A DNA stretch of 64,000 bases, from positions 16,840 through 80,839 of the forward strand of contig NZ_DASRYS010000014.1 of the NCBI RefSeq assembly GCF_035687085.1. The letters run 5' to 3'. The position numbers and the translations under genes are program-made. A model generated the notes under the pieces. The model was given only the letters and a program-made list of their open reading frames with translations. It searched no databases and had not been told where the DNA came from. Shown here piece after piece: positions 319 to 60,165 of this stretch. Source of the stretch: Hyphomicrobium sp. (GTDB taxonomy: Bacteria > Pseudomonadota > Alphaproteobacteria > Rhizobiales > Hyphomicrobiaceae). Positions within the stretch are counted from its first letter, which is position 1. Each line of letters starts with the position of its first letter.

Positions 319-343
319 GGAACTCCCGGCGCTGCGGATTATT
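319..343 (+). promoter_or_regulatory. Possible sigma-EcfG-type promoter (weak) for the SDR gene
   Basis: GGAAC-N16-TATT, 48 nt upstream of ATG 392; two mismatches to the CGTT -10. Confidence 0.35.
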
Positions 344-391
344 GAGCCAACTCCACCCCAGCATATTTTTGCAAAGCGGAGACGGCTCTCA

Positions 392-1249
392 ATGTCATCC
401 TATCCCGAACCCCCATTCTCCACGCCGGCTCAAGATCCGCCGGGTCTTACCGAAAAAATGTCTCCAGTGCCGGACCACGGGGAGAAGAGCTACAGGGGTT
501 CTGGGCGGCTCGCCGGCAAACGCGCGATCATTACCGGAGGCGATAGCGGCATCGGCCGCGCCGTCGCCATCGCCTATGCGCGCGAAGGAGCAGACGTTCT
601 CATCTCCTATCTCTCCGAGGACGGCGACGCTCAGTCGACGGCCGCGCTCGTCAAGGATGCCGGCCGCAAGGCCGTGCTCGTGCCTGGTGATGTCAAAGAT
701 CCAGAGCACTGCCGCCGCATTGTCGAACGGGCCGTTTCAGAGCTTGGCGGCGTCGACATTCTTGTCAACAACGCCGCGCATCAGGCGACCTTCAAGGAGC
801 TCGAAGACATTCCGGATGAGGAATGGGAAATGACCTTCAAAACGAACATCCACTCGATGTTCTACCTGACGAAGGCGGCGGTGCCGCACATGAAGGAAGG
901 CGGCGCGGTGATCAACACGGCTTCGATCAACGCCGACACGCCCAATCCGACCCTTCTGGCTTATGCCACGACGAAGGGCGCGATCCAAAACTTCACGGCC
1001 GGGCTTGCGCAGATGCTCAGCAAGAAGGGCATCCGTGCGAATGCCGTGGCGCCGGGTCCGATATGGACTCCGCTCATTCCCTCGACGATGCCGCAGGAGA
1101 CGGTAGAGAAGTTCGGCGGGAATACTCCGATGGGGCGGCCTGGTCAGCCAGCAGAACTCGCGACCGCCTACGTTATGCTTGCTGATCCACTGTCTAGCTA
1201 TGTGTCGGGCGCGACGATCGCGGTGACTGGCGGCAAGCCCTTTATATGA
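392..1249 (+). CDS. SDR family oxidoreductase (YghA/general stress protein 39 type)
   Basis: TGGDSGIG NAD-binding motif, DILVNNAA, YATTK catalytic YxxxK, NAVAPGPIWTP; 285 aa. Confidence 0.92.
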   Translation: MSSYPEPPFSTPAQDPPGLTEKMSPVPDHGEKSYRGSGRLAGKRAIITGGDSGIGRAVAIAYAREGADVLISYLSEDGDAQSTAALVKDAGRKAVLVPGDVKDPEHCRRIVERAVSELGGVDILVNNAAHQATFKELEDIPDEEWEMTFKTNIHSMFYLTKAAVPHMKEGGAVINTASINADTPNPTLLAYATTKGAIQNFTAGLAQMLSKKGIRANAVAPGPIWTPLIPSTMPQETVEKFGGNTPMGRPGQPAELATAYVMLADPLSSYVSGATIAVTGGKPFI

Positions 1250-1280
1250 TCGGAATGCAGCGATCCAATCGCGAAACGAA

Positions 1281-1315
1281 TTTGGCTATCTGAGGGGCAG
1301 TCTCAGATAGCCAAA
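1281..1315. terminator. Bidirectional hairpin between convergent SDR and catalase genes
   Basis: Perfect 14-bp inverted repeat TTTGGCTATCTGAG-7 nt-CTCAGATAGCCAAA. Confidence 0.75.
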
Positions 1316-1341
1316 CTTTATATGCTGTCCAGAACGAGTGA

Positions 1342-2211: not shown

Positions 2212-2276
2212 CGGTGATGCACTCCTCCTTGGAGATTGTTCGTTAGCGGGGCCCCGCCGTAGGGCCGCTCGCGAGG

Positions 2277-2301
2277 AACGGAACGGTCAACGATAAGTTC
2301 A
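2277..2301 (-). promoter_or_regulatory. Sigma-EcfG-type promoter for Mn-catalase
   Basis: TGAAC-N16-CGTT on the minus strand, 65 nt upstream of ATG 2211. Confidence 0.6.
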
Positions 2302-2441: not shown

Positions 2442-2466
2442 GGAACATTTTCAACCCGATTCAATT
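2442..2466 (+). promoter_or_regulatory. Possible sigma-EcfG-type promoter (weak)
   Basis: GGAAC-N16-AATT, upstream of ATG 2496. Confidence 0.4.
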
Positions 2467-2810: not shown

Positions 2811-3446
2811 TTATTGCACCGCTTTGAAGCCAGCGGGATGCCAGCTATCGAGCAGGAGCTCTGTCGAAACCGTTTCGACCTGCGCGCCGAACCGATTCAT
2901 GTAGATATTCATCATCGAGTCGTGTGTTTCATCGGTCGAACTACAAAGCGCATCTCTGACGAGAATGACGCGGAAGCCCCAGTCCATTGCACCGAGCACA
3001 GTGCTGAGAACGCAAACGTCCGTCTCGCCGCCCGTGACGATGACGGTATCAATTCCCGCGTCACGCAGTTCAAGGTGGAGATTGGATCCCGTCCAAGGCG
3101 AGTAGACATACTTGTCGTGCGTTCGCGCGGGAGGCACAAGGCGCGAGAGTTCCGGCACCAAATCGATCATTTCTGGCCCAAGCTCTTCCATCGTCATCGA
3201 GGCCCAGCGCTCATAGTAGCGGCGCCACATGCCCACGCCATGACCCGGCGCCGGCGCCGGAAGAAAGCGCGTAAAAATGGTGCGCTCCGGGTGCGCCTCT
3301 GCGATCGCCACGATTTTTGGAAGCACCCGCGCGAGCCAGGGCATGTGCCAATCCGTTTGCTCCGCGAACATGCGCTGCATGTCCACGCACAGATGGACGG
3401 CCGTGTCCCCCGGTGCACCGAATTTGAGGTCGTCCTGCTTACTCAT
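2811..3446 (-). CDS. Cysteine hydrolase (isochorismatase family)
   Basis: VDMQ ... DKYVYS ... ETDVCV, the Asp-Lys-Cys triad; 211 aa. Confidence 0.88.
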   Translation of the reverse strand: MSKQDDLKFGAPGDTAVHLCVDMQRMFAEQTDWHMPWLARVLPKIVAIAEAHPERTIFTRFLPAPAPGHGVGMWRRYYERWASMTMEELGPEMIDLVPELSRLVPPARTHDKYVYSPWTGSNLHLELRDAGIDTVIVTGGETDVCVLSTVLGAMDWGFRVILVRDALCSSTDETHDSMMNIYMNRFGAQVETVSTELLLDSWHPAGFKAVQ

Positions 3447-3454
3447 GGAGCGCC

Positions 3455-3479
3455 AACGCTGGATATCTGAATGCGTTCC
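3455..3479 (-). promoter_or_regulatory. Sigma-EcfG-type promoter (perfect consensus)
   Basis: GGAAC-N16-CGTT; the -10 ends 8 nt before ATG 3446, implying a leaderless or near-leaderless mRNA. Confidence 0.75.
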
Positions 3480-4185: not shown

Positions 4186-4455
4186 TTAGAGCCTCCAAAT
4201 TGCGCCGAGTGCAAAACCTATAACGGCCGCCAGACCGAGCGTGGCCTTCGGATCCTCGCGGAGAGATTTCGCGAGCGCTTCCGAGATGTTTTCTGCGACG
4301 CGATAGAAGCCGCCCGCTCCAGGATCGCCGCTGTCGCCTCCCTGCGCATATCGCGGAACCACATCGTAGGGCTCACCGCCCTCCAAATGTTTTTGGACAG
4401 CGGCCAAGCGCGCTTTCGTTTCTTCAAGCTGTTCTTCTGGAGGCCTGTAAACCAT
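4186..4455 (-). CDS. DUF883/ElaB-YqjD-like tail-anchored membrane protein
   Basis: C-terminal REDPKATLGLAAVIGFALGAIWR motif; RBS AAGGA; 89 aa. Confidence 0.65.
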   Translation of the reverse strand: MVYRPPEEQLEETKARLAAVQKHLEGGEPYDVVPRYAQGGDSGDPGAGGFYRVAENISEALAKSLREDPKATLGLAAVIGFALGAIWRL

Positions 4456-4478: not shown

Positions 4479-4503
4479 AACGCAGTCCGGAAAGGAAGTT
4501 TCC
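4479..4503 (-). promoter_or_regulatory. Sigma-EcfG-type promoter for the DUF883-like/mpg unit
   Basis: GGAAA-N16-CGTT, 23 nt upstream of ATG 4455. Confidence 0.55.
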
Positions 4504-4556: not shown

Positions 4557-4582
4557 GGAACAAAGCAAAGCTTCGCTGCGTT
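4557..4582 (+). promoter_or_regulatory. Sigma-EcfG-type promoter (perfect consensus)
   Basis: GGAAC-N17-CGTT, 31 nt upstream of ATG 4614. Confidence 0.75.
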
Positions 4583-4613: not shown

Positions 4614-5183
4614 ATGGGCCTCTTTACACGAGATCTGAAATCACTTGAGGACCTGTTCAAACACGGCCTTCAGGACATCTATTACGCAGAGCAGCAAATC
4701 GTGAAGACGCTGCCCCAGCTCATCGAGCAGACGACCAGCAGCGAACTCAAGCAGGGTCTGAAAGAGCACCTCGAACAAACTCAGAACCAGATCTGGCGCT
4801 TGGAGACGGTGTTCGCGGCACTTGGCGAAGAGCCGAAGGGCGTGCGCTGCAAGGGCATCGACGGCATTCTGTCGGAAGGCAACGAGCTTATCGGAAATTC
4901 AGACGGGCGCAGCGTGATCGAGGCTGCCGTGATCGCGTCTGCCCAGGCCGTCGAGCACTACGAAATCACGCGCTATGGCGACCTGATCGCCTGGGCTCGT
5001 GAGATGGGCCGGAACGATCTTCTAAAGCCTCTGCGCGCCAACCTGCGCGAGGAGAAGGCCACCGATCGGAAGCTCACCCAAATTGCCGAGGGTAAGATCA
5101 ACAAAAGAGCCGACAAGACGCCGAAGCGTGGCGCCCGCCGCTCGCGCGGTAAGTCTCGGGCATCCGTCTCGGCTGCGGCTTAA
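4614..5183 (+). CDS. Ferritin-like DUF892 (YciF/YciE family) protein
   Basis: LQDIYYAEQQI, HLEQT..QI.RLE, AQAVEHYEITRYG, EEKATD.KLT; start MGLFTRD after RBS AAGGA; basic C-terminal tail. Confidence 0.9.
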   Translation: MGLFTRDLKSLEDLFKHGLQDIYYAEQQIVKTLPQLIEQTTSSELKQGLKEHLEQTQNQIWRLETVFAALGEEPKGVRCKGIDGILSEGNELIGNSDGRSVIEAAVIASAQAVEHYEITRYGDLIAWAREMGRNDLLKPLRANLREEKATDRKLTQIAEGKINKRADKTPKRGARRSRGKSRASVSAAA

Positions 5184-5326: not shown

Positions 5327-6154
5327 TCACGTCTTCTGCGGTTCCTTTCTTCGAGTGAGCGCGTAAGCGCGCGTCAGCTCCGCGCCAAAGAGGACGATCT
5401 GAGAGGCGTAGTAGACCCAGATCAGAAGCACGACCAACGACGCCGCTGCTCCATAGGTGGACTCGAAGCTTTGCGTTCCGATGTACCAGGCAATGGCGAC
5501 TTTCCCGAGTTGGAAGAGAGCGGCTGTCGCCGCGCCGCCGATCCACACGTCGGACCAATTGACGGTGGTGTCGGGGAAGTACTTGAACAGGGCGGCGAAC
5601 AGGACCGTAAGGACAATGAAAGAGACGACCACTTCGGCGAGTTGGCCTAGCGCGCTGCCGCCTGGAAAGAATTGCGACACGGAAGCGAGCACCGTGCTCA
5701 ACACCAGCGATGTCGCCAGTAGAAAGCCGAGCGCCATGATCCCCGCCATGGAAACGACATAGGTGCGAATGAAGGGCCAAACGCCGCTTTCCCTTGTCTC
5801 GTCGACTTCCCAGATCGTGTTCAATGCGTCCTTCAGCTGAGCGACGACGCCAACCGCAGCAATAATCAGAAGAATGATTCCGACGATGGATGCTGCCTTT
5901 CCCGAGGACTGGGAGGAGGCTCCCTGCCTCATGGCCTCCAGAGCGCGAGCGCCGTTCTCGCCAATCAGACCCGAGAGCTGGGTGTTGATAGCGGTTGTCA
6001 CGGTCTCACGGTCGAAAAGGAAAGCCGCGATGGCAATGACAATCAAGAGCAGCGGTCCTAACGAGAAGACGGCGTAATAGGCGAGCGCCGCGCCTAGCCT
6101 CGGGCTGTGGTGCTTCATCCACCCCTGGAATGCCGTAACGAGAAGATTCCACAT
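5327..6154 (-). CDS. YihY/virulence factor BrkB family membrane protein
   Basis: LGAALAYYAVFSLGPLL, YGAAASLVVLLIWVYYASQIVLFGAE; multiple TM segments; start at MWNLLV. Confidence 0.88.
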   Translation of the reverse strand: MWNLLVTAFQGWMKHHSPRLGAALAYYAVFSLGPLLLIVIAIAAFLFDRETVTTAINTQLSGLIGENGARALEAMRQGASSQSSGKAASIVGIILLIIAAVGVVAQLKDALNTIWEVDETRESGVWPFIRTYVVSMAGIMALGFLLATSLVLSTVLASVSQFFPGGSALGQLAEVVVSFIVLTVLFAALFKYFPDTTVNWSDVWIGGAATAALFQLGKVAIAWYIGTQSFESTYGAAASLVVLLIWVYYASQIVLFGAELTRAYALTRRKEPQKT

Positions 6155-6158: not shown

Positions 6159-6575
6159 TCAGGCTTCGGAGTGCGCGGAAGTTTTGCTCGTGCCGAGGTA
6201 GAGCGCAGTCGCCAACAATACAAAGACCAGCGCAGAAGACAGGACCGCGCCGCTGCCGGCTTGCGCCGAGGGGCTAAAGGCGCTTGAGACGGCCCGCGCG
6301 GCATTCACGGGCCCCTGGGTCGCCGATTTCAGCCGCGTTTCGGCTTCCTTTTCCTTGCTGCCGGAAATCAGCATCATGATCAGCCCGGCGATGCAGAAGA
6401 TCGCCGCAAAGATGAGGCTGGCAATGATCGCGCCGAAGATTTGGGCGACCCAGATGACCGCTGCGGCGAGTGCGAATGCGATGCCTATTCCGAAGAATAG
6501 GCCCATCAGGCCCGCAGCCTCGTAGGACTGCACAAATGCACCGGCGGCTGATTTCAGGTTTGCAATGATGCGCAC
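6159..6575 (-). CDS. Small membrane protein (holin-X/YqjE-like)
   Basis: Two adjacent TM helices plus a C-terminal hydrophobic segment; GTG start; 138 aa; stress-gene context. Confidence 0.55.
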   Translation of the reverse strand: MRIIANLKSAAGAFVQSYEAAGLMGLFFGIGIAFALAAAVIWVAQIFGAIIASLIFAAIFCIAGLIMMLISGSKEKEAETRLKSATQGPVNAARAVSSAFSPSAQAGSGAVLSSALVFVLLATALYLGTSKTSAHSEA

Positions 6576-6610: not shown

Positions 6611-6635
6611 AACCCCTTGTTTGTTCAACTGTTCC
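6611..6635 (-). promoter_or_regulatory. Sigma-EcfG-type promoter
   Basis: GGAAC-N16-GGTT, 35 nt upstream of GTG 6575. Confidence 0.6.
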
Positions 6636-6718: not shown

Positions 6719-6744
6719 GGAACGGCGTGTGCGGGGCGAGGGTT
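6719..6744 (+). promoter_or_regulatory. Sigma-EcfG-type promoter
   Basis: GGAAC-N17-GGTT, 8 nt before ATG 6753. Confidence 0.6.
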
Positions 6745-6752
6745 GTCGAAGC

Positions 6753-7289
6753 ATGACGACTTCACCTAATCCAACGTATCCGCCGCCCCCAATGGATGGC
6801 CTGGCACCGACGTTGGACCGCAACATCGCGAGCTTGCGGCAGCGCCGGCAACGCGAACAGCAGCGGGCGACCTGGCAGGAACGGCTGGCCGACGCGATCA
6901 CGCTGTTTACGGGCAGCATGACGTTCGTCTTCATTCACCTGATCGTGTTCGGCTTCTGGATTATCGCCAATGCTGGGTTTGTGCCGGGTGTGCGCCCATG
7001 GGATCCCGATTTCGTCATGCTCGCTATGGTCGCCTCCGTCGAAGCGATCTTTCTTTCCACCTTCGTTCTCATCTCGCAAAACCGCATGGCCGCCGTGGCG
7101 GACAAGCGCGCGGATCTCGATCTGCAAATCAGCCTGCTGGCAGAGCACGAATTGACGAAGGTCGCGACATTGCTTGCCGAGATTGCCAAGCATGAGGGCA
7201 TAGGAGCCGCCGCGGACAAGGAACTCGAGGAAGTGCAGCGCGAAATATCTCCAAACGCCGTCCTCGACCGATTGGAGAAGGAGGAGTAG
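6753..7289 (+). CDS. DUF1003 domain membrane protein
   Basis: ERLADAIT.FTGS..FVFIH, two TM segments, SVEAIFLSTFVLISQNR, DLQISLLAEHE. Confidence 0.85.
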   Translation: MTTSPNPTYPPPPMDGLAPTLDRNIASLRQRRQREQQRATWQERLADAITLFTGSMTFVFIHLIVFGFWIIANAGFVPGVRPWDPDFVMLAMVASVEAIFLSTFVLISQNRMAAVADKRADLDLQISLLAEHELTKVATLLAEIAKHEGIGAAADKELEEVQREISPNAVLDRLEKEE

Positions 7290-7357: not shown

Positions 7358-7382
7358 GGAACTTACTGCAATCCAATCCGTT
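7358..7382 (+). promoter_or_regulatory. Sigma-EcfG-type promoter (perfect consensus)
   Basis: GGAAC-N16-CGTT, 32 nt upstream of ATG 7415. Confidence 0.75.
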
Positions 7383-7414: not shown

Positions 7415-7747
7415 ATGAAGCTCAAGTATGCAGCCGCAGTGACAGGACTCATGGTTTTCGCTGGCTCGCCTGTGTTGGCCGCTGAAAACAATGCAGCCGG
7501 CACGCAAAATACGTCCCCTAGCGCGCAGGGCGCCCCAACTTCGGGTCCCGGCATTGCTGGGGCGCCGGGCAACAAGAACGGCCCTGCAGCAAAGGAACCT
7601 TCTAATAACTCCGGAAGCAGCACTGGCACTGCCGGCAGCACGTCCGACAAGCTGAAGATGAACGACACGCAGCCGACACAGGACTCGCAAGGCGTTTCGG
7701 GCGAACAGGGAAATAAGAACGGTCCCGCCGCTCAGCCGAACCAGTAA
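7415..7747 (+). CDS. Secreted low-complexity protein with a duplicated GNKNGPAA motif
   Basis: RBS GAGGAG; signal peptide ending in VLA-A; Gly/Ser/Asn-rich; 110 aa. Confidence 0.75.
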   Translation: MKLKYAAAVTGLMVFAGSPVLAAENNAAGTQNTSPSAQGAPTSGPGIAGAPGNKNGPAAKEPSNNSGSSTGTAGSTSDKLKMNDTQPTQDSQGVSGEQGNKNGPAAQPNQ

Positions 7748-7834: not shown

Positions 7835-8608
7835 TTAATCGCGCCGGGCGGCCGTGTGTCCATGCGGCTCCGCACACAAATCCAGCAGCCGTGCAGCGTC
7901 CTTGGGGGCAGCGCTCTTCTGATCATTGTCGAAATAGACGTAGACCGTCTTTTTCGCGCTGCGCCACGATTGGATTTCATCAGCCCATAGGCCGAGCGTC
8001 CGGGTGGGATAACTGCCTTTGTAACGGCCCGTTGGCCCATGCCCGCGCACGTAAACGTGGCTCGCTGTCGAGACCCAAGGAGATGGCGCGTCGTGATGGT
8101 CCGACAGGCAGAGCGATACGTCATGCTTTGCCAGAAGCGCGTAGACGTTGTCGTCGTACCAGCTGGCGTCGCGAAATTCGAAAGCGTAGCGCCGCTTAGG
8201 CGAGAGCATGGCAAGGAAATCGGAAAGCCGGGCGCAATCTGCTCGAAAGCGCGCCGGCAATTGAAACAGAACCGGGCCGCACTTCCTGCCAAGCAGCGAC
8301 AGTCTCGTTTCCATGAGCTCAAGGGAGTTGGCGGAGCTCGGACCCAGCCGCTTCCAATGCGTGATGAATTTGGACGCCTTCCAGGCGAACAGGAAATCCG
8401 CTGGCGTCTGGTTGCGCCAGCTTTCGACCGCCTCTAGCGAAGGGGTTCTGTAGAACGAACCGTTGACTTCGGCTGAACCAAAACGCTCGGCATACCATGG
8501 CAGCCATCGGCTTCGTGGCACGCCTTCCGGATAAAAGCGGAGGCGCCAGTCATCGTAGCTCCACCCGGAAGTACCAATAAAGAGCTTTCCCGACTGCGCC
8601 TTCCTCAA
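7835..8608 (-). CDS. DUF72 domain protein
   Basis: IGTSGWSY..W, EVNGSFY, KASKFITH, LFQLP, FEFRD.SW, YVRGHG, VYFDND; 257 aa. Confidence 0.9.
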   Translation of the reverse strand: MRKAQSGKLFIGTSGWSYDDWRLRFYPEGVPRSRWLPWYAERFGSAEVNGSFYRTPSLEAVESWRNQTPADFLFAWKASKFITHWKRLGPSSANSLELMETRLSLLGRKCGPVLFQLPARFRADCARLSDFLAMLSPKRRYAFEFRDASWYDDNVYALLAKHDVSLCLSDHHDAPSPWVSTASHVYVRGHGPTGRYKGSYPTRTLGLWADEIQSWRSAKKTVYVYFDNDQKSAAPKDAARLLDLCAEPHGHTAARRD

Positions 8609-8688: not shown

Positions 8689-9492
8689 TCAGCGCGGCGG
8701 CTGGGCAGACGTTCCCGAGCCCGGCTCCGCAACTTTGCGATGCTGGGACGCGAGCATCTCGGCTGGCGTGATATTGGCGATCGCAGTCTGCAGCTTGTTG
8801 TACCAGCCCGTCACCACATCGCCGTCGCCTTCCATCATGGCGCGGAAGCCAACTTCGGCCACATCGGCGGGATCGTCCTTTTTCATTTGGCCGAGCTTTG
8901 TATCTTTCAGCCCGGCGCGTTCGAAGAACTCCGTTTCGGTAGCGCCCGGCATGAGGCAGGTCACGGAGACGTTGTGATCCTTCAGCTCTTCGCGGATGGC
9001 GAAGGAGAATGAATCGATGAAGGCCTTCGATGCGTTGTAGACGGCGTTGAACGGGCCAGGCGAGAAGCCCGCAATCGATCCCGTGATCAGGATTTTGCCT
9101 TCCTTCCTGCTGCGCATCTGCTGCCCGATGCGCTGGATCATGTAGAGCGTACCGGTAATATTGGTGTCGAGGACGCGCTTTACGGCGCCAAAATCCTGGT
9201 CGAAGAAGCTCCCTCTTTCACCGCGTCCTGCGTTTGCGAGAAGAGCGTCTATCCGGCGGGAAGCGACTTTATCGAGAACCTTGTCGACGCCTTCGCGTTT
9301 GGCGAGATCGGCTTCGATCGCTTCCACACCCGTACCGAACCCCGACAGTTCGGCGGCAGCGTCGTTGATCCTGGGTTCGTCGGCCACGATTATGAGATTG
9401 TATCCGTTCTTCGCACAGCACTTTGCAAGCTCGTAGCCAATGCCGGTTGAGGCTCCGGTGACGAGAGCCGTCGGGCGCGTACTGGTAGCCAT
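8689..9492 (-). CDS. SDR family oxidoreductase
   Basis: TGASTGIG, LANAG, YNASK; start MATSTRPT after RBS GGAGG. Confidence 0.9.
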   Translation of the reverse strand: MATSTRPTALVTGASTGIGYELAKCCAKNGYNLIIVADEPRINDAAAELSGFGTGVEAIEADLAKREGVDKVLDKVASRRIDALLANAGRGERGSFFDQDFGAVKRVLDTNITGTLYMIQRIGQQMRSRKEGKILITGSIAGFSPGPFNAVYNASKAFIDSFSFAIREELKDHNVSVTCLMPGATETEFFERAGLKDTKLGQMKKDDPADVAEVGFRAMMEGDGDVVTGWYNKLQTAIANITPAEMLASQHRKVAEPGSGTSAQPPR

Positions 9493-9638: not shown

Positions 9639-9947
9639 TTACTTTCCGCTCGCCGGAGGCGACGTCTTATTGCCAGGATCGTTCAACTGGCTCGGCGAAA
9701 GCTCACCGGATTCGCGCGCATCCTGCTTCTCTTGCGGTGCAGTCGGCTCAGAGCTTCCGGATGCTCCACTGCTGGCTCCTGAACCAGGCGAGGTCGGGGC
9801 TTCGACCGGTGAGGACTGGTTCGTCGTCGATTTTTCGGAACCGGAGTTCCCCGGAGATACCGGGCCGCTCGACAATGACGACTGGCACCACGCGGGAGAC
9901 GAGAGCGTCATGCATACTGCAACAGCGAAGGGAAGGAATCTCTTCAT
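9639..9947 (-). CDS. Secreted Ser/Pro/Gly-rich hypothetical protein
   Basis: Signal peptide MKRFLPFAVAVCMTLSSPAWC; low-complexity body; perfect EcfG motif upstream. Confidence 0.65.
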   Translation of the reverse strand: MKRFLPFAVAVCMTLSSPAWCQSSLSSGPVSPGNSGSEKSTTNQSSPVEAPTSPGSGASSGASGSSEPTAPQEKQDARESGELSPSQLNDPGNKTSPPASGK

Positions 9948-11273: not shown

Positions 11274-11291
11274 GGAACATATCCTTGCGTC

Positions 11292-51635: not shown

Positions 51636-51845
51636 TTCGCTCTTGGGAAAACTTTTAGCAGAGCCTTATTACCAACCACCTCCCCCTGTGGCCAGCCTTC
51701 TTAGGCCGAATTATCTGCCTCGACCCTGTGCGATAGGCCGGATGCACCAGCGGCTTAGGCTTGCGGTCTACGGCTTTGGGGGCCGCGTCCTTTCACCCGC
51801 CCGAGGCGGGTGGAACCGGCAGTGGCCACACGAATTTAGAGTAGT

Positions 51846-52115
51846 ATGAGCGACCGTATCCTGGATGACGCCAGAGAGGCGTTTTTATTCGTTAATTCCG
51901 ATCGCACCTTGAATGCCGTCTCGCTTCGTCGCGACGGGCGGGATCTTCCGCAAACCGGCGAGAGCCAGTGGCGGTTTGAGCGGGAATTCCCACTTGGTGT
52001 GCATGAAGCCACGCCATTCGGGCTGGACCCAGAACCCATCCTTCGCGGTGTAGCGTCCGATGGATATTTCGTCTGGCCGGTCGAGCATGTGCAGCCGTTT
52101 GGAACGTCTCAGTGA
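51846..52115 (+). CDS. Hypothetical protein
   Basis: ATG preceded by GGAAC-N16-AATT (51812-51836); globular-looking 89 aa ending in RGVASDGYFVWP. Confidence 0.55.
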   Translation: MSDRILDDAREAFLFVNSDRTLNAVSLRRDGRDLPQTGESQWRFEREFPLGVHEATPFGLDPEPILRGVASDGYFVWPVEHVQPFGTSQ

Positions 52116-52390
52116 GTTTGAGTGAGTTGAGTAGCCGGCGTACCAGTCCTGAGCCACCGCGGCCCCCGCCTGAGCCGGCTGGGCCTCAGCGGCATTGGGT
52201 CGAGATTTTTACCGACGGCGTGACAGAGCGGCTGAAGGAAGTTCTCCAGGAAGATATGGATTGGATGACGTCGCGCCCAATCTTGGAGCGCCTCAATCGC
52301 CTGTACGATATCGAACAGACGCGCGGATCGGAAAAGGACGTTTCAGACATCACTCGTCCTTCTGTCCAAAGACCAGGATCCAGCAGATAA
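52112..52390 (+). CDS. Hypothetical protein
   Basis: GTGA overlap with the upstream ORF; Pro-rich N-terminus followed by a helical segment. Confidence 0.35.
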   Translation: MSLSELSSRRTSPEPPRPPPEPAGPQRHWVEIFTDGVTERLKEVLQEDMDWMTSRPILERLNRLYDIEQTRGSEKDVSDITRPSVQRPGSSR

Positions 52391-52626
52391 TCGCTCCCGT
52401 AATCGTCTGCAGCGCCAGAATGATTTCAAGAGGCAACAGGTTAGCGGTCATCTCATCTGTCCTTTCCCATTCGCAGAGAAAACCGCCCCAGAGCGATGCC
52501 AGTTCCGGCTGTGAAGAACGCCGCTGTGGATAAGGAATTCAGGCCCGCTGATACAGATACGGCAAAAAAACGTGCGGAGACGTTTCCGCTCCGCACGCGC
52601 CATATCGAAGGCATATGTCTTTAATT

Positions 52627-52881
52627 TCAGGCCCGCCGCACCATGCCGACGATAAAGAGCAGGATTAAAGATCCGATCACGGCTGCCACGATATTTCCTG
52701 CCGTCGACTCCGTATAAAGACCCATCGCTTGGGCGAGGATTCCGGCGATACCTGCGCCCAGAATGCCAATGACGATGTTGCCGATCAATCCAAAGCCATA
52801 ACCCTTGACGAGAAGCCCCGCGAGCCACCCCGCGATTGCACCAATGATAATCCAGGCTAAAACGGATTCTGGAGCGAGCAT
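52627..52881 (-). CDS. GlsB/YeaQ/YmgE family stress-response membrane protein
   Basis: WIIIGAIAGWLAG, GFGLIGNIVIGILGA, IVAAVIGSLILL; GGAAC-N17-AATT upstream (52926-52951). Confidence 0.9.
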   Translation of the reverse strand: MLAPESVLAWIIIGAIAGWLAGLLVKGYGFGLIGNIVIGILGAGIAGILAQAMGLYTESTAGNIVAAVIGSLILLFIVGMVRRA

Positions 52882-52991
52882 GTGTGACTCTCCTTTGTTT
52901 TGAGGTGTTCCCGTAGGCCTCCTTGAATTCCTCAAAACCAAATAAAGTTCCAAATTGTCACAGAACGTTTTCAGATGTGGCAGGCGCACCA

Positions 52992-53339: not shown

Positions 53340-54308
53340 TCAGATCAGTTCGTGAACGCTGAATTGCTCGCCAGCATCGGTCCATAGGCGCTTGGGCTTC
53401 CAGCCGGCCTTGCTTGCCAGCTCACGGAACTCTGAGACCGCATACTTATAGGAGTTCTCAGTGTGGATTGTTTCACCCTGGGAGAAGTGGAAGCGGCTCC
53501 CGGCGGCCATGACGTCCTGAACGCGGTCGCTAACGAGATGCATCTCGATCCGGCCCGCGCGCGGATTGTAGAGAGCCTTATGACGGAAAGCGGCCAGATC
53601 AAATGTGCCAGCGAGTTCGCGATTGATGCGGACGAGGAGGTTCAAATTGAATTCGGCCGTGACCCCTGCGCTGTCATTATAGGCATTCACGAGGACGCGT
53701 GGATCCTTCTTCAGATCGACGCCGATGATCAAGCGCCCCCGATCTCCCAGCACGTTTCTGAAGCTCCTCAGCAGGGCGACCGCCTCATTCGGAGAAAGAT
53801 TTCCGATAGTCGATCCAGGGAAGAAGCCTGTCTTGTTAGAACCGGCAAACTCATCGGGGAGCTCTGGCAGATTGGAGAAGTCCGCCACGAGCGGCCTGAT
53901 GTCGAGCGCTGGATAGCGGCCTTGCAAGCGCGCAGTCGCCTCCGACAACGCAGATTCCGAAACGTCCAACGGCATGTACGTCACGCGACCAGCAATATGG
54001 TCGAGGAGGATTTCGGTTTTCAGGCTCGAGCCGGAGCCGAATTCCACCAGAACATCGCCGCTTGAAATACCATCGACGATTTCGGCTGCGCATTGCTTGA
54101 GGATGCCGATCTCGGTGCGCGTTGGATAATACTCTGGGAGTTCTGTGATTTCCTCAAATAAGCTGCTGCCACGAGCATCGTAGAGGAAGCGGCACGGCAG
54201 CGTCTTCTGCGGGCGAGATAAACCTTCAATGACACTCGCCCCAAAATCATCCGCCAGCGCCGTTGTGCCCGGCAGCGGCAAGGTCTCAAGGTTCGGAACG
54301 TGGCGCAT
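53340..54308 (-). CDS. egtD: L-histidine N-alpha-methyltransferase
   Basis: KTLPCRFLYDARGS.LFEEITELPEYYPTRTE, EFGSGSSLKT, GSTIGN, YNDSAGVTAEFNLN, TENSYKY. Confidence 0.93.
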   Translation of the reverse strand: MRHVPNLETLPLPGTTALADDFGASVIEGLSRPQKTLPCRFLYDARGSSLFEEITELPEYYPTRTEIGILKQCAAEIVDGISSGDVLVEFGSGSSLKTEILLDHIAGRVTYMPLDVSESALSEATARLQGRYPALDIRPLVADFSNLPELPDEFAGSNKTGFFPGSTIGNLSPNEAVALLRSFRNVLGDRGRLIIGVDLKKDPRVLVNAYNDSAGVTAEFNLNLLVRINRELAGTFDLAAFRHKALYNPRAGRIEMHLVSDRVQDVMAAGSRFHFSQGETIHTENSYKYAVSEFRELASKAGWKPKRLWTDAGEQFSVHELI

Positions 54309-55642
54309 CACTCAACCTCCGCCGCGAGACGCAAGCCGAGGAACTGCCAGCGCTGATGGGGATAAAAGAAATTGCGGTAAGTCACGCGGGAATGGCCCGC
54401 CGGCGTTGCGCATGAGGATCCCCGCAGCACGTGTTGCCCGACCATGAACTTGCCGTTGTATTCGCCGATTGCGCCTGCGGGCGGGCGGTAGCCCGGATAT
54501 GGCAGATAGGCGCTCGCCGTCCACTGCCAGACTTGGCCGAAGAGCTGCTTTGGCCCTTTTGAAGCCGATGTTTCACTTCGCTGCGGACGCAACACGCCAG
54601 ATGATTTCGCTGCTTCCTGCCCGTCTGAAAGGGCCGCCGATTCCCATTCGAATTCGGTGGGCAAACGCTTGCCGGCCCAGCGGGCGAAGGCGTCGGCTTC
54701 ATAATAGGATACGTGGGTCACGGGTTCTGCGGGCGCCACCGGCCGAAGACCCTGGAGCGACATCTGCGACCAGCTGCTGTCCGTCTGCTCCCAATACAGC
54801 GGGGCCTCCCAGCCCTCTCGGTTGACGGCCGCCCAACCGTCCGCCAGCCAGTGCGCTGGCGTCGCGTAACCGCCATCTTCCATGAATTCGAGCCATTCGG
54901 CATTCGTGACGAGCCGGTTGGCAAGCTTGAACGGCTGAATGAGCGCGTCATGCGAAGGCAGTTCATTATCCCAGCAATAACCTTCGCCGGAGTGACCGAT
55001 CTTCACGATGCCGCCGGGGTACTCCGTCCATCCAAGCGGCTCGGGTCCGGTGAAATCGACAGCGGAGGGTTTGGCTTGATACGCGGGGCGCAGAGGGTTT
55101 GATGCAAGCAGCGCCAGTATGTCGGTCAACAACAGTTCTTGATGCTGTTGCTCGTGGTTGATGCCGATTTCGAGCAGCCGGGCGACTTCGTCTTGATCAG
55201 TCCCATCGCTTGCGAGAAGACGCCGAAGCGCCTCGTCGACGTGGGCTCGATATTGGAAAACGCGCTCGGATGTTGGCCGCGTCAGCAGGCCTCGTTTTGG
55301 CCGCGGATGACGAGGGCCGAGGCTCTCGTAGTACGAGTTGAAGCAATAATTGAACGCCTCGTCGAAAACTTGATAGCCGGCGAGGTGCGGCTTCAAGACA
55401 AAGTTCTCAAAGAACCAAGTCACGTGTGCGAGGTGCCACTTCGTCGGGCTCGCATCATCGGAGGCTTGCACGACCATATCTTCGGCCGAAAGCGGCTCGG
55501 CCAAGTCCATCGAGTGCTGTCGCGTCTTGAACAGACGCGCAGACAGCGCGTCGCGGACGCTCGTGCTTGCCTCATCAGCCGGCAGCAGTAGGGAGCCGTC
55601 GGTTTGCTCGTGGGGTGCCTTGCCGGCTGCAGGATTTTCCAA
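54308..55642 (-). CDS. egtB: Ergothioneine biosynthesis sulfoxide synthase
   Basis: SPTKWHLAHVTWFFE, NSYYE, HEQQHQEL (Fe ligands), C-terminal FGE-like domain ending RNFFYPHQRWQF.GLRL. Confidence 0.9.
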   Translation of the reverse strand: MENPAAGKAPHEQTDGSLLLPADEASTSVRDALSARLFKTRQHSMDLAEPLSAEDMVVQASDDASPTKWHLAHVTWFFENFVLKPHLAGYQVFDEAFNYCFNSYYESLGPRHPRPKRGLLTRPTSERVFQYRAHVDEALRRLLASDGTDQDEVARLLEIGINHEQQHQELLLTDILALLASNPLRPAYQAKPSAVDFTGPEPLGWTEYPGGIVKIGHSGEGYCWDNELPSHDALIQPFKLANRLVTNAEWLEFMEDGGYATPAHWLADGWAAVNREGWEAPLYWEQTDSSWSQMSLQGLRPVAPAEPVTHVSYYEADAFARWAGKRLPTEFEWESAALSDGQEAAKSSGVLRPQRSETSASKGPKQLFGQVWQWTASAYLPYPGYRPPAGAIGEYNGKFMVGQHVLRGSSCATPAGHSRVTYRNFFYPHQRWQFLGLRLAAEVE

Positions 55643-55703: not shown

Positions 55704-55728
55704 AACTCAGAGCTTCCAAGATAGTTCC
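55704..55728 (-). promoter_or_regulatory. Sigma-EcfG-type promoter for egtBD
   Basis: GGAAC-N16-AGTT, 61 nt upstream of TTG 55642. Confidence 0.55.
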
Positions 55729-55783: not shown

Positions 55784-56212
55784 CTACTTGTTTTGTTTTG
55801 GCTTCGATTTTTCGTGCTTCTCGCCGTATTTCATTCCTTCGAGCTTGATGCCGTCAGGATCTAAGAAGAAGACGGCGTAGTAGTCTTCATAATACTCATC
55901 GGCAGGATCGACAATTTCCACGCTGTTCTTCTTAAGATACTCCTGCAGTTCATCGACGTCTTTTCGGTTGCGAAGCTGGAAGGCGTAATGATGCAGCCCG
56001 ACGTCGCCGGTCCGGTGTTTATGCTTCCGTCCATCCGCGTCGGCCTGCGTAATCCAATAGCGGGTCTTGCCGTTCGTCCAGCCAATCGAGTTCTCGTATT
56101 CATCCAGCACGTCGAAGCCGAGGAACTCGAAGAGGCCGCCGTAGAAGGCCTTTGATTTTGCAAAGTTGCTGACGCGGATCGCTAAATGGTCGATGCCGGC
56201 GACGCGCGACAT
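55784..56212 (-). CDS. VOC (glyoxalase-like) family protein
   Basis: GIDHLAIRV, GLHHYAF, YYAVFFLDPDGIKLE; 142 aa. Confidence 0.85.
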   Translation of the reverse strand: MSRVAGIDHLAIRVSNFAKSKAFYGGLFEFLGFDVLDEYENSIGWTNGKTRYWITQADADGRKHKHRTGDVGLHHYAFQLRNRKDVDELQEYLKKNSVEIVDPADEYYEDYYAVFFLDPDGIKLEGMKYGEKHEKSKPKQNK

Positions 56213-56239: not shown

Positions 56240-58525
56240 TCAGTTCTCGAGAAGGTGTTCCAGGCGGATAGGCAAATGCCGGATGCGCTTACCCGTTGCA
56301 TGGAAGATCGCATTGGCAATTGCCGCGTTCGTCCCGACGTTGCCGAGTTCGCCCAGACCCTTGATGCCCGCCGGATTGACCTCGTCATCGACTTCGGGAA
56401 CGAGGATGACCTCGACATCTGCAATATCCGCATTCACCGGCACGAGGTAGTCCTGAAGCTCGCGATTGACATAGCGCGCATTGCGCGGATCGACCTGCGT
56501 CTCTTCCAGCAGCGCTGAACTCATGCCCCAGATCATGCCGCCCATCAGCTGGCTTCGGGCCGTGCGGGTATTCATAATGCGACCGGCTGCGAACGCGCCG
56601 ACCATGCGAGGCACGCGGATTTCGCGCGTTCGGGCATTGATGCGGACCTCGACAAACTCGGCGCCAAACGCGTACATCAGCTTCTTGCCGTGCGAACCGC
56701 CAACGAACGTGCTTTTGCCGGTATAGAGCGAATGCACCGCATCCGCGGGCGCGCCTTCCGGTACGAACTCGGCATACTCTTCGACCATGCCGGCGCCGAG
56801 AATTTTGAACACGTCCGAGAGCTTCTGCGAGCGTCCGTCCTTGGCGACGACTTCGCCGTTCTTGAGATCGAGATCGGCAATCGGCTTGCCGACGAGCGGG
56901 CCATCGTTCGATCGAACGGCAGCTTCGAAGAGCCTGCGCCGTATTCCCTCGCAGGCCTTGAGCACCGTGGAACAGACACTCGCAGTGCTGTTCGAGCCGC
57001 CTGCGACGGGCGCGGGCGGATGATCGCTGTCTCCCATTTCGCACTGGACCGCCGTGATATCGAGCCCAAGTCTCTCGGCCGCCATTTGGGCTGCAACGGT
57101 CCGGATGCCCGTGCCGATCTCATGGGAGGCGCTTTGAACGTCAGCAGTACCGTCGGCAGACAGGCGGACGCGCGCAGTGGCGGCCCCAACATGGGTTGGA
57201 TATACGGCGGTCGCACAGCCCCACCCGATCATCCAATCGCCATCGCGCATGCTGCCAGGGGCTTTGACTCGGTTTGACCAACCGAATGCTTTGGCCGCCT
57301 CGTCGTAGCATTCCATCAACGAGCGGCTGCTGTATGGCTTGCCTGAGATGGGATCCTTGTGGGTGTCGTTGAGGCGCCGAAGTTCGACGGGGTCCATATC
57401 CAGCTTGTAGGCCAGTTCGTCGATCGCACTTTCGAGCGGGAACATATACGGCGTTTCGGGCGGAGATCGCATGTACCCCGGCGTTTGCCGGTCCGCCTTC
57501 ACAAGTTCGACTTTGCTTGCGACTGCGCCGTATGCGTACATTCGCGATGTCGTATCGACGCCACCGACCACGTAATTATCGATGCGGGACGTCAGCTCGG
57601 TCCCTTCGTGGCTGAATGCCAAAAACTTGCCGTCGCGGGATGCTCCTAGGCGAAGGCGATGCTTCGTCTCCGCGCGGAACGTCGTAGTCGTGAATCCTTG
57701 CATGCGTGTTACGACGCAGCGGACCGGCCGGTTGAGACGGCGCGCGGCGACGGCGACGATCGCCGTCCGCGGCGTCATCGGTCCCTTGGAGCCAAACGCG
57801 CCTCCGACGTACGGGCTCACGACGCGAACGTTCTTTGGATCCAACTGCAGCTGCTTGGCGATTTCCGCTTTGAAGCCGTAAACGTTCTGCGTCGGTTCGT
57901 AGACGGTCAGCTGATCGTGCGTCCAGGCGCAAGTCGTGGAGAAAAGCTCGATCGGGTTGTGTGTCTCGGGGGCGGTCGCATATTCGGCATCGATCTGCAC
58001 AGGGGCGCTTGCGAACGCAGCTTCGAAGTCGCCAGCCTTGAGATCTTCCGGATACATCGGGCTAACGCCCGCTGCAGGGATCGTCTCCGTGCCCGGGGAA
58101 TCCAGCGTCGCGCTCGCGGGCTGCTCCGCGTAGGTCATGCGCACTAGAGATGCCGCTTGAGATGCGGCTTCGAACGTGTCGGCGACGACGAGCGCTACGA
58201 TCTGCCCGTCATGGACGATTGTCTTCTGATGCAGCGGTGCCAACGACGTCGATGTTGAATTGGAATACTTGGGGGCCTTGACGCCACTCATGTCGCCATA
58301 AGTGACGATATCGAGAACGCCCGAAACGGCCTTTGCCTCCGAAAAATCCATCCAGGTGACTTCACCGTGCGAAATGGGGCTAGTCACCAGCACGGCGTGA
58401 GCGAAATTGTTCAGTGGAATGTCGGCAGCGTAAGGTGCTTCGCCCGTTACCTTCAGTCGGCCATCAATGCGCGGCGCGGGCTGACCTTGATTTTGACGCG
58501 GCTCGGGAGCGGCTGGCTGCAGCAT
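56240..58525 (-). CDS. paoC: Xanthine dehydrogenase family Mo-cofactor subunit (PaoC/YagR-like)
   Basis: RIDGRLKVTG, VGGAFGSKG, MRSPPE, HEIGTG, AGGS, KGLGELG; 761 aa. Confidence 0.85.
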   Translation of the reverse strand: MLQPAAPEPRQNQGQPAPRIDGRLKVTGEAPYAADIPLNNFAHAVLVTSPISHGEVTWMDFSEAKAVSGVLDIVTYGDMSGVKAPKYSNSTSTSLAPLHQKTIVHDGQIVALVVADTFEAASQAASLVRMTYAEQPASATLDSPGTETIPAAGVSPMYPEDLKAGDFEAAFASAPVQIDAEYATAPETHNPIELFSTTCAWTHDQLTVYEPTQNVYGFKAEIAKQLQLDPKNVRVVSPYVGGAFGSKGPMTPRTAIVAVAARRLNRPVRCVVTRMQGFTTTTFRAETKHRLRLGASRDGKFLAFSHEGTELTSRIDNYVVGGVDTTSRMYAYGAVASKVELVKADRQTPGYMRSPPETPYMFPLESAIDELAYKLDMDPVELRRLNDTHKDPISGKPYSSRSLMECYDEAAKAFGWSNRVKAPGSMRDGDWMIGWGCATAVYPTHVGAATARVRLSADGTADVQSASHEIGTGIRTVAAQMAAERLGLDITAVQCEMGDSDHPPAPVAGGSNSTASVCSTVLKACEGIRRRLFEAAVRSNDGPLVGKPIADLDLKNGEVVAKDGRSQKLSDVFKILGAGMVEEYAEFVPEGAPADAVHSLYTGKSTFVGGSHGKKLMYAFGAEFVEVRINARTREIRVPRMVGAFAAGRIMNTRTARSQLMGGMIWGMSSALLEETQVDPRNARYVNRELQDYLVPVNADIADVEVILVPEVDDEVNPAGIKGLGELGNVGTNAAIANAIFHATGKRIRHLPIRLEHLLEN

Positions 58526-58528
58526 TTC

Positions 58529-59527
58529 TCAGATCCTCATCGCCTTCGCTTCGAGCAGTGCACGCACAATGGCGGCCTTGCCGGCCGGCACCTTGAATTT
58601 ATTGTATTGGCGGGGCTCGGCTCCGGCAAAGGCCGCTTCGGCCGCCTTTGCCGCCAACCTTTCATCGAGGATGTTGCCTCTGATGACCGCTTCGGCCTCG
58701 CCCGAGCGCCAGGGCACCGTTGCCACGCCGCCGAGCGCGAGCCGCACGTCGCGAACCCTGTCACCATCGAGATCGAGAGCCACCGCAACGGAGGCAACCG
58801 CAAACTGGTAAGACTGGCGGTCGCGGATTTTCAGATAATGAGAGCGGCGCGTGTGCGGTCCGGCGGGGACGTCAATAGACGTGATCAGTTCGCCCGGCTC
58901 TAGGACTGTCTCGACTTCCGGTGTATCGCCCGGAAGCCGGTGCAATTGTCCAAACGGAATCTGACGATTGCCGTTCGGTCCGGCCGTCGAAACAATCGCA
59001 TCGAGCGCGATGAGCGCCTGGGCAAAGTCACCGTGGTATGTCGCGATGCAGGCTGGGCTGGTGCCGAGAACCGCGTGTTCACGGTTGATGCCCTCAAGCG
59101 CAGAGCATCCCGATCCCGGCTGACGCTTGTTACAAGGCCAAGACGTTTCGCGGAAATATTGGCAGCGCGTTTTCTGCAGAATATTGCCGCCTAGGCTCGC
59201 CATATTGCGGATTTGCTGACTGGCAGCCAGCATGAGGCTTTCTGCTATGACCGGATAATCGCGTTTGATATCCGGGTGGTCCTGAGCTTCCGCCATGCGC
59301 ACCAGCGCACCGAGGTGAAGACCTTCGCTCGTCACGTCGATGCGCCCATGCACGTCCTTGGCGAGGACGTTGATGTCGACCAAGCGATCCGGTTGAAGTA
59401 CGTCGAGCTTCATGTAGTCGACGACATTCGTGCCGCCGGCGATGAATTGCGCCCGGGCCGCGTGGGCTGCGGCGGCTGCAACCGCGTCGCCCGTATCGCG
59501 GGCTTTGTAGTATCCAAACCTATTCAT
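58529..59527 (-). CDS. paoB: FAD-binding subunit with a 4Fe-4S insert (PaoB/YagS-like)
   Basis: IAGGTN, ASQQIRNMASLGGN, RCQYFR...CNKR.PGSGC...CIAT, YLKIRDRQSY. Confidence 0.88.
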   Translation of the reverse strand: MNRFGYYKARDTGDAVAAAAAHAARAQFIAGGTNVVDYMKLDVLQPDRLVDINVLAKDVHGRIDVTSEGLHLGALVRMAEAQDHPDIKRDYPVIAESLMLAASQQIRNMASLGGNILQKTRCQYFRETSWPCNKRQPGSGCSALEGINREHAVLGTSPACIATYHGDFAQALIALDAIVSTAGPNGNRQIPFGQLHRLPGDTPEVETVLEPGELITSIDVPAGPHTRRSHYLKIRDRQSYQFAVASVAVALDLDGDRVRDVRLALGGVATVPWRSGEAEAVIRGNILDERLAAKAAEAAFAGAEPRQYNKFKVPAGKAAIVRALLEAKAMRI

Positions 59528-60105
59528 CAGGCCCGCTCCATTTCAGCTTTGGCCTGTCTCACAGCAGCGACGATGTTGGGGTAAGCGGCGCAGCGGCAGA
59601 GATTGCCGCTCATGAACTCGCGGATCTCATCGTCGTCGTTGGCATGGCCTTCGTTGATGCACGCAACGGCCGACATGATTTGGCCCGGCGTGCAGTAGCC
59701 ACATTGGAGGCCATCGTTGTCGATGAAGGCTTGCTGGACCGGATGCAGCTTGCCCTCGGGACTCGCTAGACCTTCAATCGTCGTGACGGCTTCGCCTTGG
59801 GCCATGACGGCGAGAGTCATGCATGAGAGCACACGCTGACCAGCGACGTGGACGGTACATGCGCCACACTGGCCGTGGTCACATCCCTTTTTTGTGCCGG
59901 TCAGTCCGGCATGATCGCGGATGGCATCGAGAAGGCTTGTGCGCGGGTCTAAGGTTAGCCGGTAATTCTCGCCGTTGATGCTTAACTCGACGGCTTCCGT
60001 CTCACTTGCGCCGCCCGCTGGGGCACTGGCAAAGGGAATGAACGGCATCCCGGCGGAGATCTCAGACGCCTCAGAGGACTGCAGATCCGAAACATCTCTT
60101 TGCAT
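59527..60105 (-). CDS. paoA: 2x[2Fe-2S] subunit (PaoA/YagT-like) without a Tat signal
   Basis: GTKKGCDHGQCGACT, QCGYCTPGQ, GNLCRC; RBS GAGGAG; no RR motif in the N-terminus. Confidence 0.88.
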   Translation of the reverse strand: MQRDVSDLQSSEASEISAGMPFIPFASAPAGGASETEAVELSINGENYRLTLDPRTSLLDAIRDHAGLTGTKKGCDHGQCGACTVHVAGQRVLSCMTLAVMAQGEAVTTIEGLASPEGKLHPVQQAFIDNDGLQCGYCTPGQIMSAVACINEGHANDDDEIREFMSGNLCRCAAYPNIVAAVRQAKAEMERA

Positions 60106-60139
60106 TTTTTGGAACTCCTCGCCCGGCAATCGCCATGCA

Positions 60140-60165
60140 AACCCCGGGGGCCGGGGCAGAGTTCC
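60140..60165 (-). promoter_or_regulatory. Sigma-EcfG-type promoter for paoABC-VOC
   Basis: GGAAC-N17-GGTT, 34 nt upstream of ATG 60105. Confidence 0.6.

Follow-up and report, generated by a model that had tools for sequence, protein, structure and literature searches.

The question raised by this locus is whether the GGAAC/CGTT-like motifs that stand in front of many of its genes are promoters and, if so, which sigma factor reads them. The locus is a 64,000-nucleotide stretch of the genome of Hyphomicrobium sp. (assembly GCF_035687085.1, contig NZ_DASRYS010000014.1, positions 16,840 to 80,839), which is referred to below, at its full length, as the window. An earlier note on the same DNA had listed 17 such motifs and had proposed that they tie most of the genes outside an oxalate locus into one putative general stress regulon, controlled by EcfG, a sigma factor of the extracytoplasmic function (ECF) type. 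The analysis described here supports that interpretation: the window is very probably part of the densest block of sigma-EcfG (ECF15) promoters in the genome, and its genes would be outputs of the PhyR-NepR-EcfG general stress response. The EcfG system itself is textbook and, in this sense, the window is a solid but ordinary example of known regulation. The least-described part of the finding is the conserved control that EcfG would exert over an inositol/sugar cassette.

Other members of the family, RpoE2 of S. meliloti, SigT of C. crescentus and EcfG1 of M. extorquens and B. diazoefficiens, share the same partner-switch mechanism and a GGAAC-N16/17-CGTT consensus, and catalases, small proteins and stress proteins of the DUF type abound in their regulons of tens to more than 100 genes. 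By a mechanism that is established for the family and proposed for this organism, stress-activated kinases would phosphorylate PhyR. Phospho-PhyR would then bind the anti-sigma factor NepR, thereby freeing EcfG, which would take RNA polymerase to promoters with GGAAC as the -35 element and (C>G,T>A)GTT as the -10 element, spaced by 16-17 nt.

To place the window in context, the 3.72 Mb assembly was scanned in full and its genes were taken from a simple codon-usage caller (3356 genes, covering 85% of the genome). The internal control for motif counts was provided by the other spacer lengths between GGAAC and the -10 box. As genomes of the same genus are only ~70% identical at the DNA level and are rearranged, intergenic regions could not be aligned and conservation was assessed instead by gene-by-gene searches for orthologues, either in 80 genomes across the order or in 40 across the family, with 1.5-kb flanks read for motifs. 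Motif-to-start distances in these relatives were estimated from alignment offsets. In what follows, G000 is the source genome, C-numbers are its contigs, and G- and L-numbers designate other genomes and orthologous loci, respectively. The confidence given to each site combines the enrichment of its motif class with its conservation.

The motif GGAAC-N16/17-CGTT occurs 97 times in the genome. Intergenic sites number 74, where the control spacers lead one to expect 10.4, and 45 sites are sense-upstream, where they predict 3.6. Here, the dependence on spacing is sharp. GGAAC-Nx-CGTT is found 25-55 times at each spacer from 8 to 27, and the intergenic share is 30 of 42 at spacer 16 and 44 of 55 at spacer 17, compared to 3-10 sites at every other spacer between 10 and 24; similarly, sense-upstream sites number 18 and 28 at the two spacers and 0-4 at the others. 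The excess of motifs upstream of starts over background, which the earlier note had taken as the signal, is thus present genome-wide. It extends to variant -10 boxes, since the sense-upstream intergenic counts, observed versus control, are 18 versus 2.0 for GGTT, 17 versus 2.0 for TGTT and 7 versus 1.6 for AGTT, and to two -35 variants combined with CGTT, GcAAC (12 versus 2.8) and tGAAC (9 versus 3.2). Taken together, the NGTT classes comprise 154 intergenic sites where 30 are expected. The bases flanking both boxes carry no information across the genomic sites, so that a position weight matrix gains nothing over the plain pattern. Between the -10 box and the start codon the median distance is 37 nt, with an interquartile range of 32-62. 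Enrichment tied jointly to spacing, intergenic position and orientation supports the view that the motif is a real promoter element in this genome.

A sigma factor to read these promoters is encoded in the same genome, in duplicate. There are six sigma-70-family genes, namely RpoD, RpoH and four ECF sigma factors. Two NepR proteins (PF18557) score 54.8 and 45.7 bits against a cut-off of 25.7 (C7:24151-24255 and C9:14070-14171), and each nepR overlaps a downstream ECF sigma gene. The products of both are EcfG-like, with NF009199 as their best NCBIfam hit; the C7 protein, at 227 bits, lies above the cut-off of 219 and the C9 protein, at 194 bits, lies below it. Beside each nepR-ecfG pair there is one PhyR (359.5 and 339.6 bits on NF006623, cut-off 240), giving two complete phyR-nepR-ecfG sets at C7:19277-24282 and C9:12895-21432. 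ECF sigma factors are usually autoregulated. The C9 locus has the classical divergent arrangement of phyR and nepR-ecfG, with GGAAC-N16-CGTT 110 nt before nepR and GGAAC-N17-AGTT 129 nt before phyR, and the attribution of the consensus to the PhyR-NepR-EcfG system made in the earlier note is supported, indirectly, by these motifs. At C7, where the genes are co-directional (nepR-ecfG-phyR), the sole box before nepR is GGAAC-N16-CATT, and upstream of the remaining two ECF sigma genes there is no motif of the GGAAC type. The neighbours of the C9 set are a DUF892 gene and a gene for a 1990-aa HAMP-repeat kinase, the latter behind a perfect motif, while those of the C7 set are an HWE-type kinase and a single-domain receiver.

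Within the window, an exact search found 5 sites of the perfect class where shuffled sequences give 1.0. GGAAC-N16/17-NGTT occurs at 15 sites, with 12 lying in intergenic DNA and 10 sense-upstream, and the control spacers predict 4, 0.2 and 0, respectively. Viewed from the -35 element, there are 36 intergenic GGAAC pentamers; TT follows 18 of these at a spacing of 16/17, where ~4 would be expected, and no other spacer gives more than 0-5. All 17 motifs of the earlier list (four perfect, eight with a single mismatch and five weaker) are present with the coordinates and strands given there and, once start codons are corrected, each points at a start 9-69 nt past its -10 box. The list was, however, incomplete: a perfect site at 44791(-) and further sites at 52481(-), 2275(+) and 45238(-) were added. 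The absence of motifs before the oxalate genes (28741-41346), also claimed there, was confirmed, as no site stands in front of them and the three intergenic GGAAC pentamers in that region lack TT at the right spacing. The densest motif cluster of the genome runs from ~2.3 kb before the start of the window to ~16.7 kb within it; one 8-kb stretch has 7 sites (P=0.004) and one of 20 kb has 11, a density that none of 2000 simulations with sites placed at random in intergenic positions attained (P<0.001). A second dense block is located at C12:235660-279378, with 15 EcfG-type sites in 64 kb.

In the first 10 kb, several well-supported sites stand close to start codons. A perfect GGAAC-N16-CGTT at 3455-3479(-) leaves an 8-nt gap to the ATG of an isochorismatase-family gene (2811-3446), a geometry of the leaderless type, and orthologues of this gene in two other genomes of the genus (G010 and G014) have the motif directly upstream. 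A perfect GGAAC-N17-CGTT at 4557-4582(+) is found 32 nt before a DUF892 (YciE/YciF-like) gene (4614-5183); about 8 of 10 DUF892 loci in the same genus have a sense motif 55-75 nt upstream. GGAAC-N16-GGTT at 6611-6635(-) lies 36 nt before a membrane protein gene (6159-6575), which is followed by a BrkB/YihY-family gene (5327-6154). Its neighbour, GGAAC-N17-GGTT at 6719-6744(+), again shows leaderless-type geometry, with an 8-nt gap to the corrected ATG at 6753 of a DUF1003 gene (6753-7289). The two remaining sites are perfect GGAAC-N16-CGTT motifs: 7358-7382(+), located 33 nt before a gene for a 110-aa secreted low-complexity protein (7415-7747), and 9981-10005(-), located 34 nt before the corrected ATG at 9947 of an open reading frame (ORF) of 102 aa (9639-9947), the product of which has a signal-peptide-like sequence, MKRFLPFAVAVC. 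A short-chain dehydrogenase/reductase (SDR) gene (8689-9492) and a DUF72 gene (7835-8608) may belong to one transcript with this ORF. These six sites, together with 16586(-), 16626(+) and 60140(-) described below, are each very probably real promoters, judging from class enrichment and conservation.

Two single-mismatch sites in the same region are backed by homologues. The manganese catalase gene (1342-2211) is preceded, at a distance of 66 nt, by tGAAC-N16-CGTT at 2277-2301(-), and the only clear orthologue found (G094; 1/1) has a perfect GGAAC-N17-CGTT ~100 nt upstream, which raises the odds that the window site is real to the level of likely. Overlapping it face-to-face is the added GGAAC-N16-AGTT site at 2275-2299(+). 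The second site, GGAAa-N16-CGTT at 4479-4503(-), lies 24 nt before the gene for an 89-aa tail-anchored protein (4186-4455). Both a paralogue of this protein in the same genome (C5:155443) and a homologue in G125 have perfect motifs, and the balance somewhat favours a functional promoter here.

The inositol/sugar cassette (10038-28196) is made up of three units, each with a candidate EcfG promoter. GGAAC-N16-TGTT at 16586-16610(-) lies 69 nt before the myo-inositol-1-phosphate synthase gene (15453-16517), which heads a tight string of seven genes (10038-16517); the start of this gene was corrected to 16517 and orthologues align from residue 1. Back-to-back with this site is its divergent partner, GGAAC-N16-GGTT at 16626-16650(+), 37 nt before a 90-aa gene (16687-16959) that is followed by a 559-aa gene (17023-18702). 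Broader cassette loci were found via alignment of the inositol-1-phosphate synthase, and a search for related loci with the 559-aa protein gave no match. Among the closest synthase orthologues (at least 62% identity), 5 of 7 have a sense motif 50-120 nt upstream. The same is true of 5 of 13 named alphaproteobacterial synthase loci with respect to an upstream motif: Tianweitania populi, Microvirga sp., Phyllobacterium salinisoli, a Xanthobacteraceae metagenome-assembled genome (MAG) and a Hyphomicrobiales MAG. A natural negative control is provided by non-alphaproteobacterial synthase loci (actinobacterial, chloroflexal and other), where none of ~67 has a sense motif upstream. In addition, divergent motif pairs are present in the orthologous intergenic regions of L061, L062 and L081; in L061 (2609-2635) and L062 (2604-2630) the two promoters are fused face-to-face, and those of the window stand back-to-back with 15 bp between them.

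The third unit is a tight string of eight epimerase, glycosyltransferase and radical-SAM genes (19197-28196), headed by an epimerase gene (27090-28196). The site 39 nt before it, GGAAC-N16-GATT at 28235-28259(-), is weak. Epimerase orthologues in L075, L077 and L078 have a perfect GGAAC-N16/17-CGTT 50-130 nt upstream and L076 has a GGTT site 315 nt upstream (3-4 of 4 loci), so that the -10 box is degenerate in the window and canonical in the orthologous loci; with this support the window site is likely to be real. No open-access paper was found that links inositol-1-phosphate synthase with EcfG, RpoE2, PhyR or SigT. It is conceivable, with a chance slightly below even, that all three units are direct EcfG targets with wiring kept across several families of the order, and that the cassette is a dedicated general stress output whose product is a glycoside or solute that contains inositol and is as yet undescribed.

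Further along the window, GGAAC-N16-AGTT at 55704-55728(-) lies ~62 nt before egtB (54308-55642); egtD (53340-54308) comes next. The assignments are at equivalog level, with EgtB at 593.7 bits on TIGR03440 (cut-off 360) and EgtD at 397.3 bits on TIGR03438 (cut-off 290.9). A sense GGAAC-N17/18-GTT is found within ~200 nt upstream of egtB orthologues in L026, L034, L035, L043 and possibly L037, that is, in 4-5 of 20 loci where ~0.1 would be expected, and the loci that were read show normal ribosome-binding sites and start geometry. Similarly, GGAAC-N17-GGTT at 60140-60165(-) lies 35 nt before a gene for a PaoA-like [2Fe-2S] subunit (59527-60105), which is followed on the same strand by genes for an FAD subunit (58529-59527), a molybdenum subunit (56240-58525) and a glyoxalase-family protein (55784-56212). 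A sense motif within ~100 nt upstream occurs in 7 of 13 PaoA-like loci, drawn from at least 5 families. In two sphingomonads, ecfG mutants show reduced expression of egtBD and of CoxSML-type genes (PMC6599016, PMC7083833).

The molybdoenzyme had been named paoABC in the earlier note, and this name holds only in part. The enzyme belongs to the xanthine-dehydrogenase family, with Fer2_2, FAD_binding_5 and MoCoBD domains. The scores for the best hits, 218 versus 322 bits for PaoA and 586 versus 1180 bits for PaoC, are below the equivalog cut-offs of the E. coli-type proteins, and there is no twin-arginine (RR) motif in the N-terminus of the small subunit, MQRDVSDLQSSEAS. From these scores and the missing twin-arginine signal it follows that the enzyme, here called PaoABC-like, is probably a cytoplasmic member of the xanthine-dehydrogenase family. 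Its placement among the general stress outputs agrees with the motifs before homologous loci and with the published CoxSML-type genes. For the cassette and for egtBD, the proposal that they are general stress outputs is likewise supported, by motifs before orthologues in other families and, for egtBD, also by the sphingomonad mutant transcriptomics.

Two of the added sites stand between 44 and 53 kb. The perfect GGAAC-N17-CGTT at 44791-44816(-) is 6-9 nt before a TTG/GTG start of a single-domain receiver gene (44366-44785); its geometry is odd, as it overlaps the 3' end of the upstream receiver gene (44801-45148). GGAAC-N17-GGTT at 52481-52506(-) lies 30 nt before a 33-aa hydrophobic ORF that had not been called (52350-52451(-)). 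The sequence of this ORF is MTANLLPLEIILALQTITGAIICWILVFGQKDE and its ribosome-binding site is GGAAAGGA. Along with the egtB site at 55704(-), each of these two is probably real, with a confidence only a little lower than that of the best sites. A single GCAAC-N16/17-CGTT site in the window (53258(-)) was rejected as a promoter, because the count for its class is at chance level and no sensible start lies downstream.

The remaining sites have an xATT -10 box and are more doubtful. GGAAC-N16-TATT at 319-343(+) lies 49 nt before ATG 392 of an SDR gene (392-1249(+)) whose best matches, across the full length from this corrected start, are NF004782 and NF005214, which we take to cover SDRs of the YghA/YdaD type, or "general stress protein 39". 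It has perhaps somewhat less than an even chance of being real. The same guarded estimate is given to GGAAC-N16-AATT at 2442-2466(+), 30 nt before a gene for a 68-aa membrane protein (2496-2702), and to the added GGAAC-N16-AATT at 45238-45262(-), which stands 90 nt before the receiver-domain gene at 44801-45148. Equally tentative are GGAAC-N16-AATT (or N17-ATTT) at 51812-51837(+), from which it is 8-9 nt to the ATG (51846) that opens a conserved ORF of 89 aa (51846-52115), and GGAAC-N17-AATT at 52926-52951(-), 45 nt before a Transgly_assoc (GlsB/YeaQ-type) gene (52627-52881); at best, these would be promoters in about half of such cases. An xATT -10 box as a general rule was rejected for lack of genome-wide enrichment, and such boxes are kept as site-by-site possibilities.

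In summary of the proposed regulon, about a dozen well-supported units would be switched on by EcfG: those for the isochorismatase-family, DUF892 and DUF1003 proteins, the membrane protein with the BrkB/YihY-family protein, the single-domain response regulator, the small secreted and membrane proteins that fall into no Pfam or NCBIfam family, egtBD, the PaoABC-like enzyme with the glyoxalase-family protein, and both divergent operons (inositol-1-phosphate synthase and 90-aa/559-aa). Three more, the manganese catalase, the 89-aa tail-anchored protein and the eight-gene glycosyltransferase operon, would probably be included, and 4-5 further xATT sites have about an even chance. The oxalate locus would lie outside the regulon. 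The statement that most non-oxalate genes of the window belong to it is correct only if the tight gene strings are operons, in which case ~33 of ~52 genes are covered by well-supported sites and up to ~40 when the weak ones are added.

Several observations weigh against assigning these sites, or all of them, to EcfG. GGAAC/CGTT-like boxes are also used by ECF sigma factors of other groups and in other phyla. As the boxes are not exclusive to EcfG, what ties them to it is autoregulation at one locus together with the lack of other candidates; the assignment is well founded, albeit indirect. Support for EcfG control in this organism consists of sequence statistics and conservation. The gene caller was simple and our own, so that some start codons and distances are approximate, and co-transcription within the seven- and eight-gene strings is read from overlaps and short gaps. 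In addition, the GGAAa-CGTT class is not significantly enriched genome-wide (4 versus 1.6 sense-upstream), and the -10 boxes of the xATT kind, taken together, show no enrichment. The GGAAa site of the earlier list and its five xATT sites are present as described but draw no support from class statistics. At the level of single genes, an orthologue of the 89-aa ORF at 51846-52115 in G136 (53% identity) has no motif, and the same is true of the closest orthologue of the Transgly_assoc gene (76% identity), with only 1-2 of 24 homologues of that family having one.

How much room is left for other explanations depends on the class of site. It could be argued that a relaxed pattern has produced chance hits, that those close to start codons were selected by eye and that no regulon unites them. 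The relaxed pattern is indeed frequent, since GGAAC-N16/17-NNTT outside the NGTT classes occurs 470 times in the genome and 16 times in the window, xATT boxes show no genome-wide excess and two weak sites that were tested are not conserved. The excess of perfect and NGTT sites is nevertheless specific to spacing, intergenic position and orientation, both in the genome (154 versus 30) and in the window (12 versus 0.2); half of the intergenic GGAAC pentamers of the window are followed by TT at the correct distance and motifs recur before orthologues in other families. As an account of the whole, chance is very improbable, and for the 12 strong sites it is already refuted.

If the promoters are real, they could still be read by another ECF sigma factor or by one EcfG paralogue, and form a narrower sub-regulon concerned, for example, with envelope or oxidative stress. 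The genome does encode two further ECF sigma factors and two EcfG paralogues, the nepR-ecfG pair at C7 stands behind a CATT box only and that at C9 behind CGTT, and paralogue-specific promoter preferences are documented in Sphingopyxis (PMC7083833). This explanation is unlikely, as the two non-EcfG genes lack the GGAAC-type motif that autoregulation would lead one to look for, the consensus is exactly that of ECF15 and the gene content fits published EcfG regulons. Of similarly low probability is the view that the stress island is confined to the first 10-17 kb, the sites before the egtBD, PaoABC-like and glycosyltransferase operons being decayed or non-functional and their genes being transcribed from sigma-70 promoters. 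These sites do carry the weaker -10 variants AGTT, GGTT and GATT. Yet canonical motifs occupy equivalent positions before orthologues in several other families, EcfG drives transcription in vitro from GGTT and TGTT boxes (PMC7083833) and egtBD and CoxSML-type genes depend on ecfG in the two sphingomonads (PMC6599016, PMC7083833). Control of the window by the PhyR-NepR-EcfG system is consequently the preferred reading.

The regulon so proposed can be compared with two that are known in detail. In Sphingomonas melonis Fr1, the EcfG motif is GGAAC-N17-20-GTT and shows enrichment at distances of up to 100 bp from start codons. Among the genes with lowered expression in the ecfG mutant are those for catalases, for TIGR03440 (EgtB) and the methyltransferase that goes with it, for subunits of the CoxS/M/L type and for glycosyltransferases; genes for response regulators with a single domain and for numerous small proteins, secreted or hypothetical, are also ecfG-dependent (PMC6599016). 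Some bona fide targets in that organism have AATT or CATT -10 boxes (PMC6599016). The window resembles this regulon in the kind of motif and in gene content, with catalase, egtBD, CoxSML-type subunits, glycosyltransferases and small secreted or membrane proteins being common to both. An inositol-1-phosphate synthase cassette is not mentioned in the paper on the S. melonis Fr1 regulon (PMC6599016). Sphingopyxis granuli TFA has two EcfG, two NepR and two PhyR proteins and a nepR-ecfG operon preceded by GGAAC-N16-CGTT, and egtB and egtD were reported there as direct targets of the general stress response "for the first time" (PMC7083833). Its commonest -35 boxes are GGAAC and GCAAC, there are 14 different -10 boxes and promoters with CGTT, TGTT, GGTT and CATT are transcribed by EcfG in vitro (PMC7083833). 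Hyphomicrobium shares with S. granuli TFA the duplication of the core regulators, and the variant boxes enriched here match the variants transcribed in vitro there. The gene arrangement at the regulator loci differs between the two, and S. melonis Fr1 belongs to a different order; moreover, the S. melonis Fr1 regulon came from mutant transcriptomics, whereas the present one, in comparison with either organism, is read from DNA sequence, through statistics and conservation.

Three further observations concern the motif itself. Inside coding regions, GGAAC-Nx-CGTT is underrepresented specifically when the spacer is 16 or 17, with 12 and 11 sites in the genome versus 18-38 (mean ~27) at spacers 10-15 and 18-24, which looks like selection against spurious EcfG promoters inside genes. 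As GTTCC is the reverse complement of GGAAC, the sequence GGAAC-N17-GTTCC reads as an EcfG promoter on both strands; overlapping face-to-face pairs number seven in the genome and include window 2275-2301, C12:250850-250876 and C12:263310-263337. Finally, an exact 8-nt gap between the -10 box and the ATG of a good ORF is found for three NGTT-class promoters in the genome, at window 3446-3479(-), window 6719-6755(+) and C14:191670(-), with neighbouring gaps giving 0-1, and the weak site at 51812-51848(+) has a like geometry. This gap suggests that the mRNAs are leaderless.

What the finding provides, for an alphaproteobacterial lineage that has been little studied, is a list of predicted general stress targets with statistics behind it: ~125 predicted EcfG promoters in the genome and 12-20 in the window. 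Within this list, egtBD and the PaoABC-like molybdoenzyme would be recurrent EcfG outputs far outside the sphingomonads, where they were first noticed. The most useful contribution is the regulatory context that it would give to the uncharacterised inositol/sugar cassette: should the cassette prove to be stress-induced, a comparison between stressed wild type and mutants in ecfG or in the cassette offers a way to look for its product.

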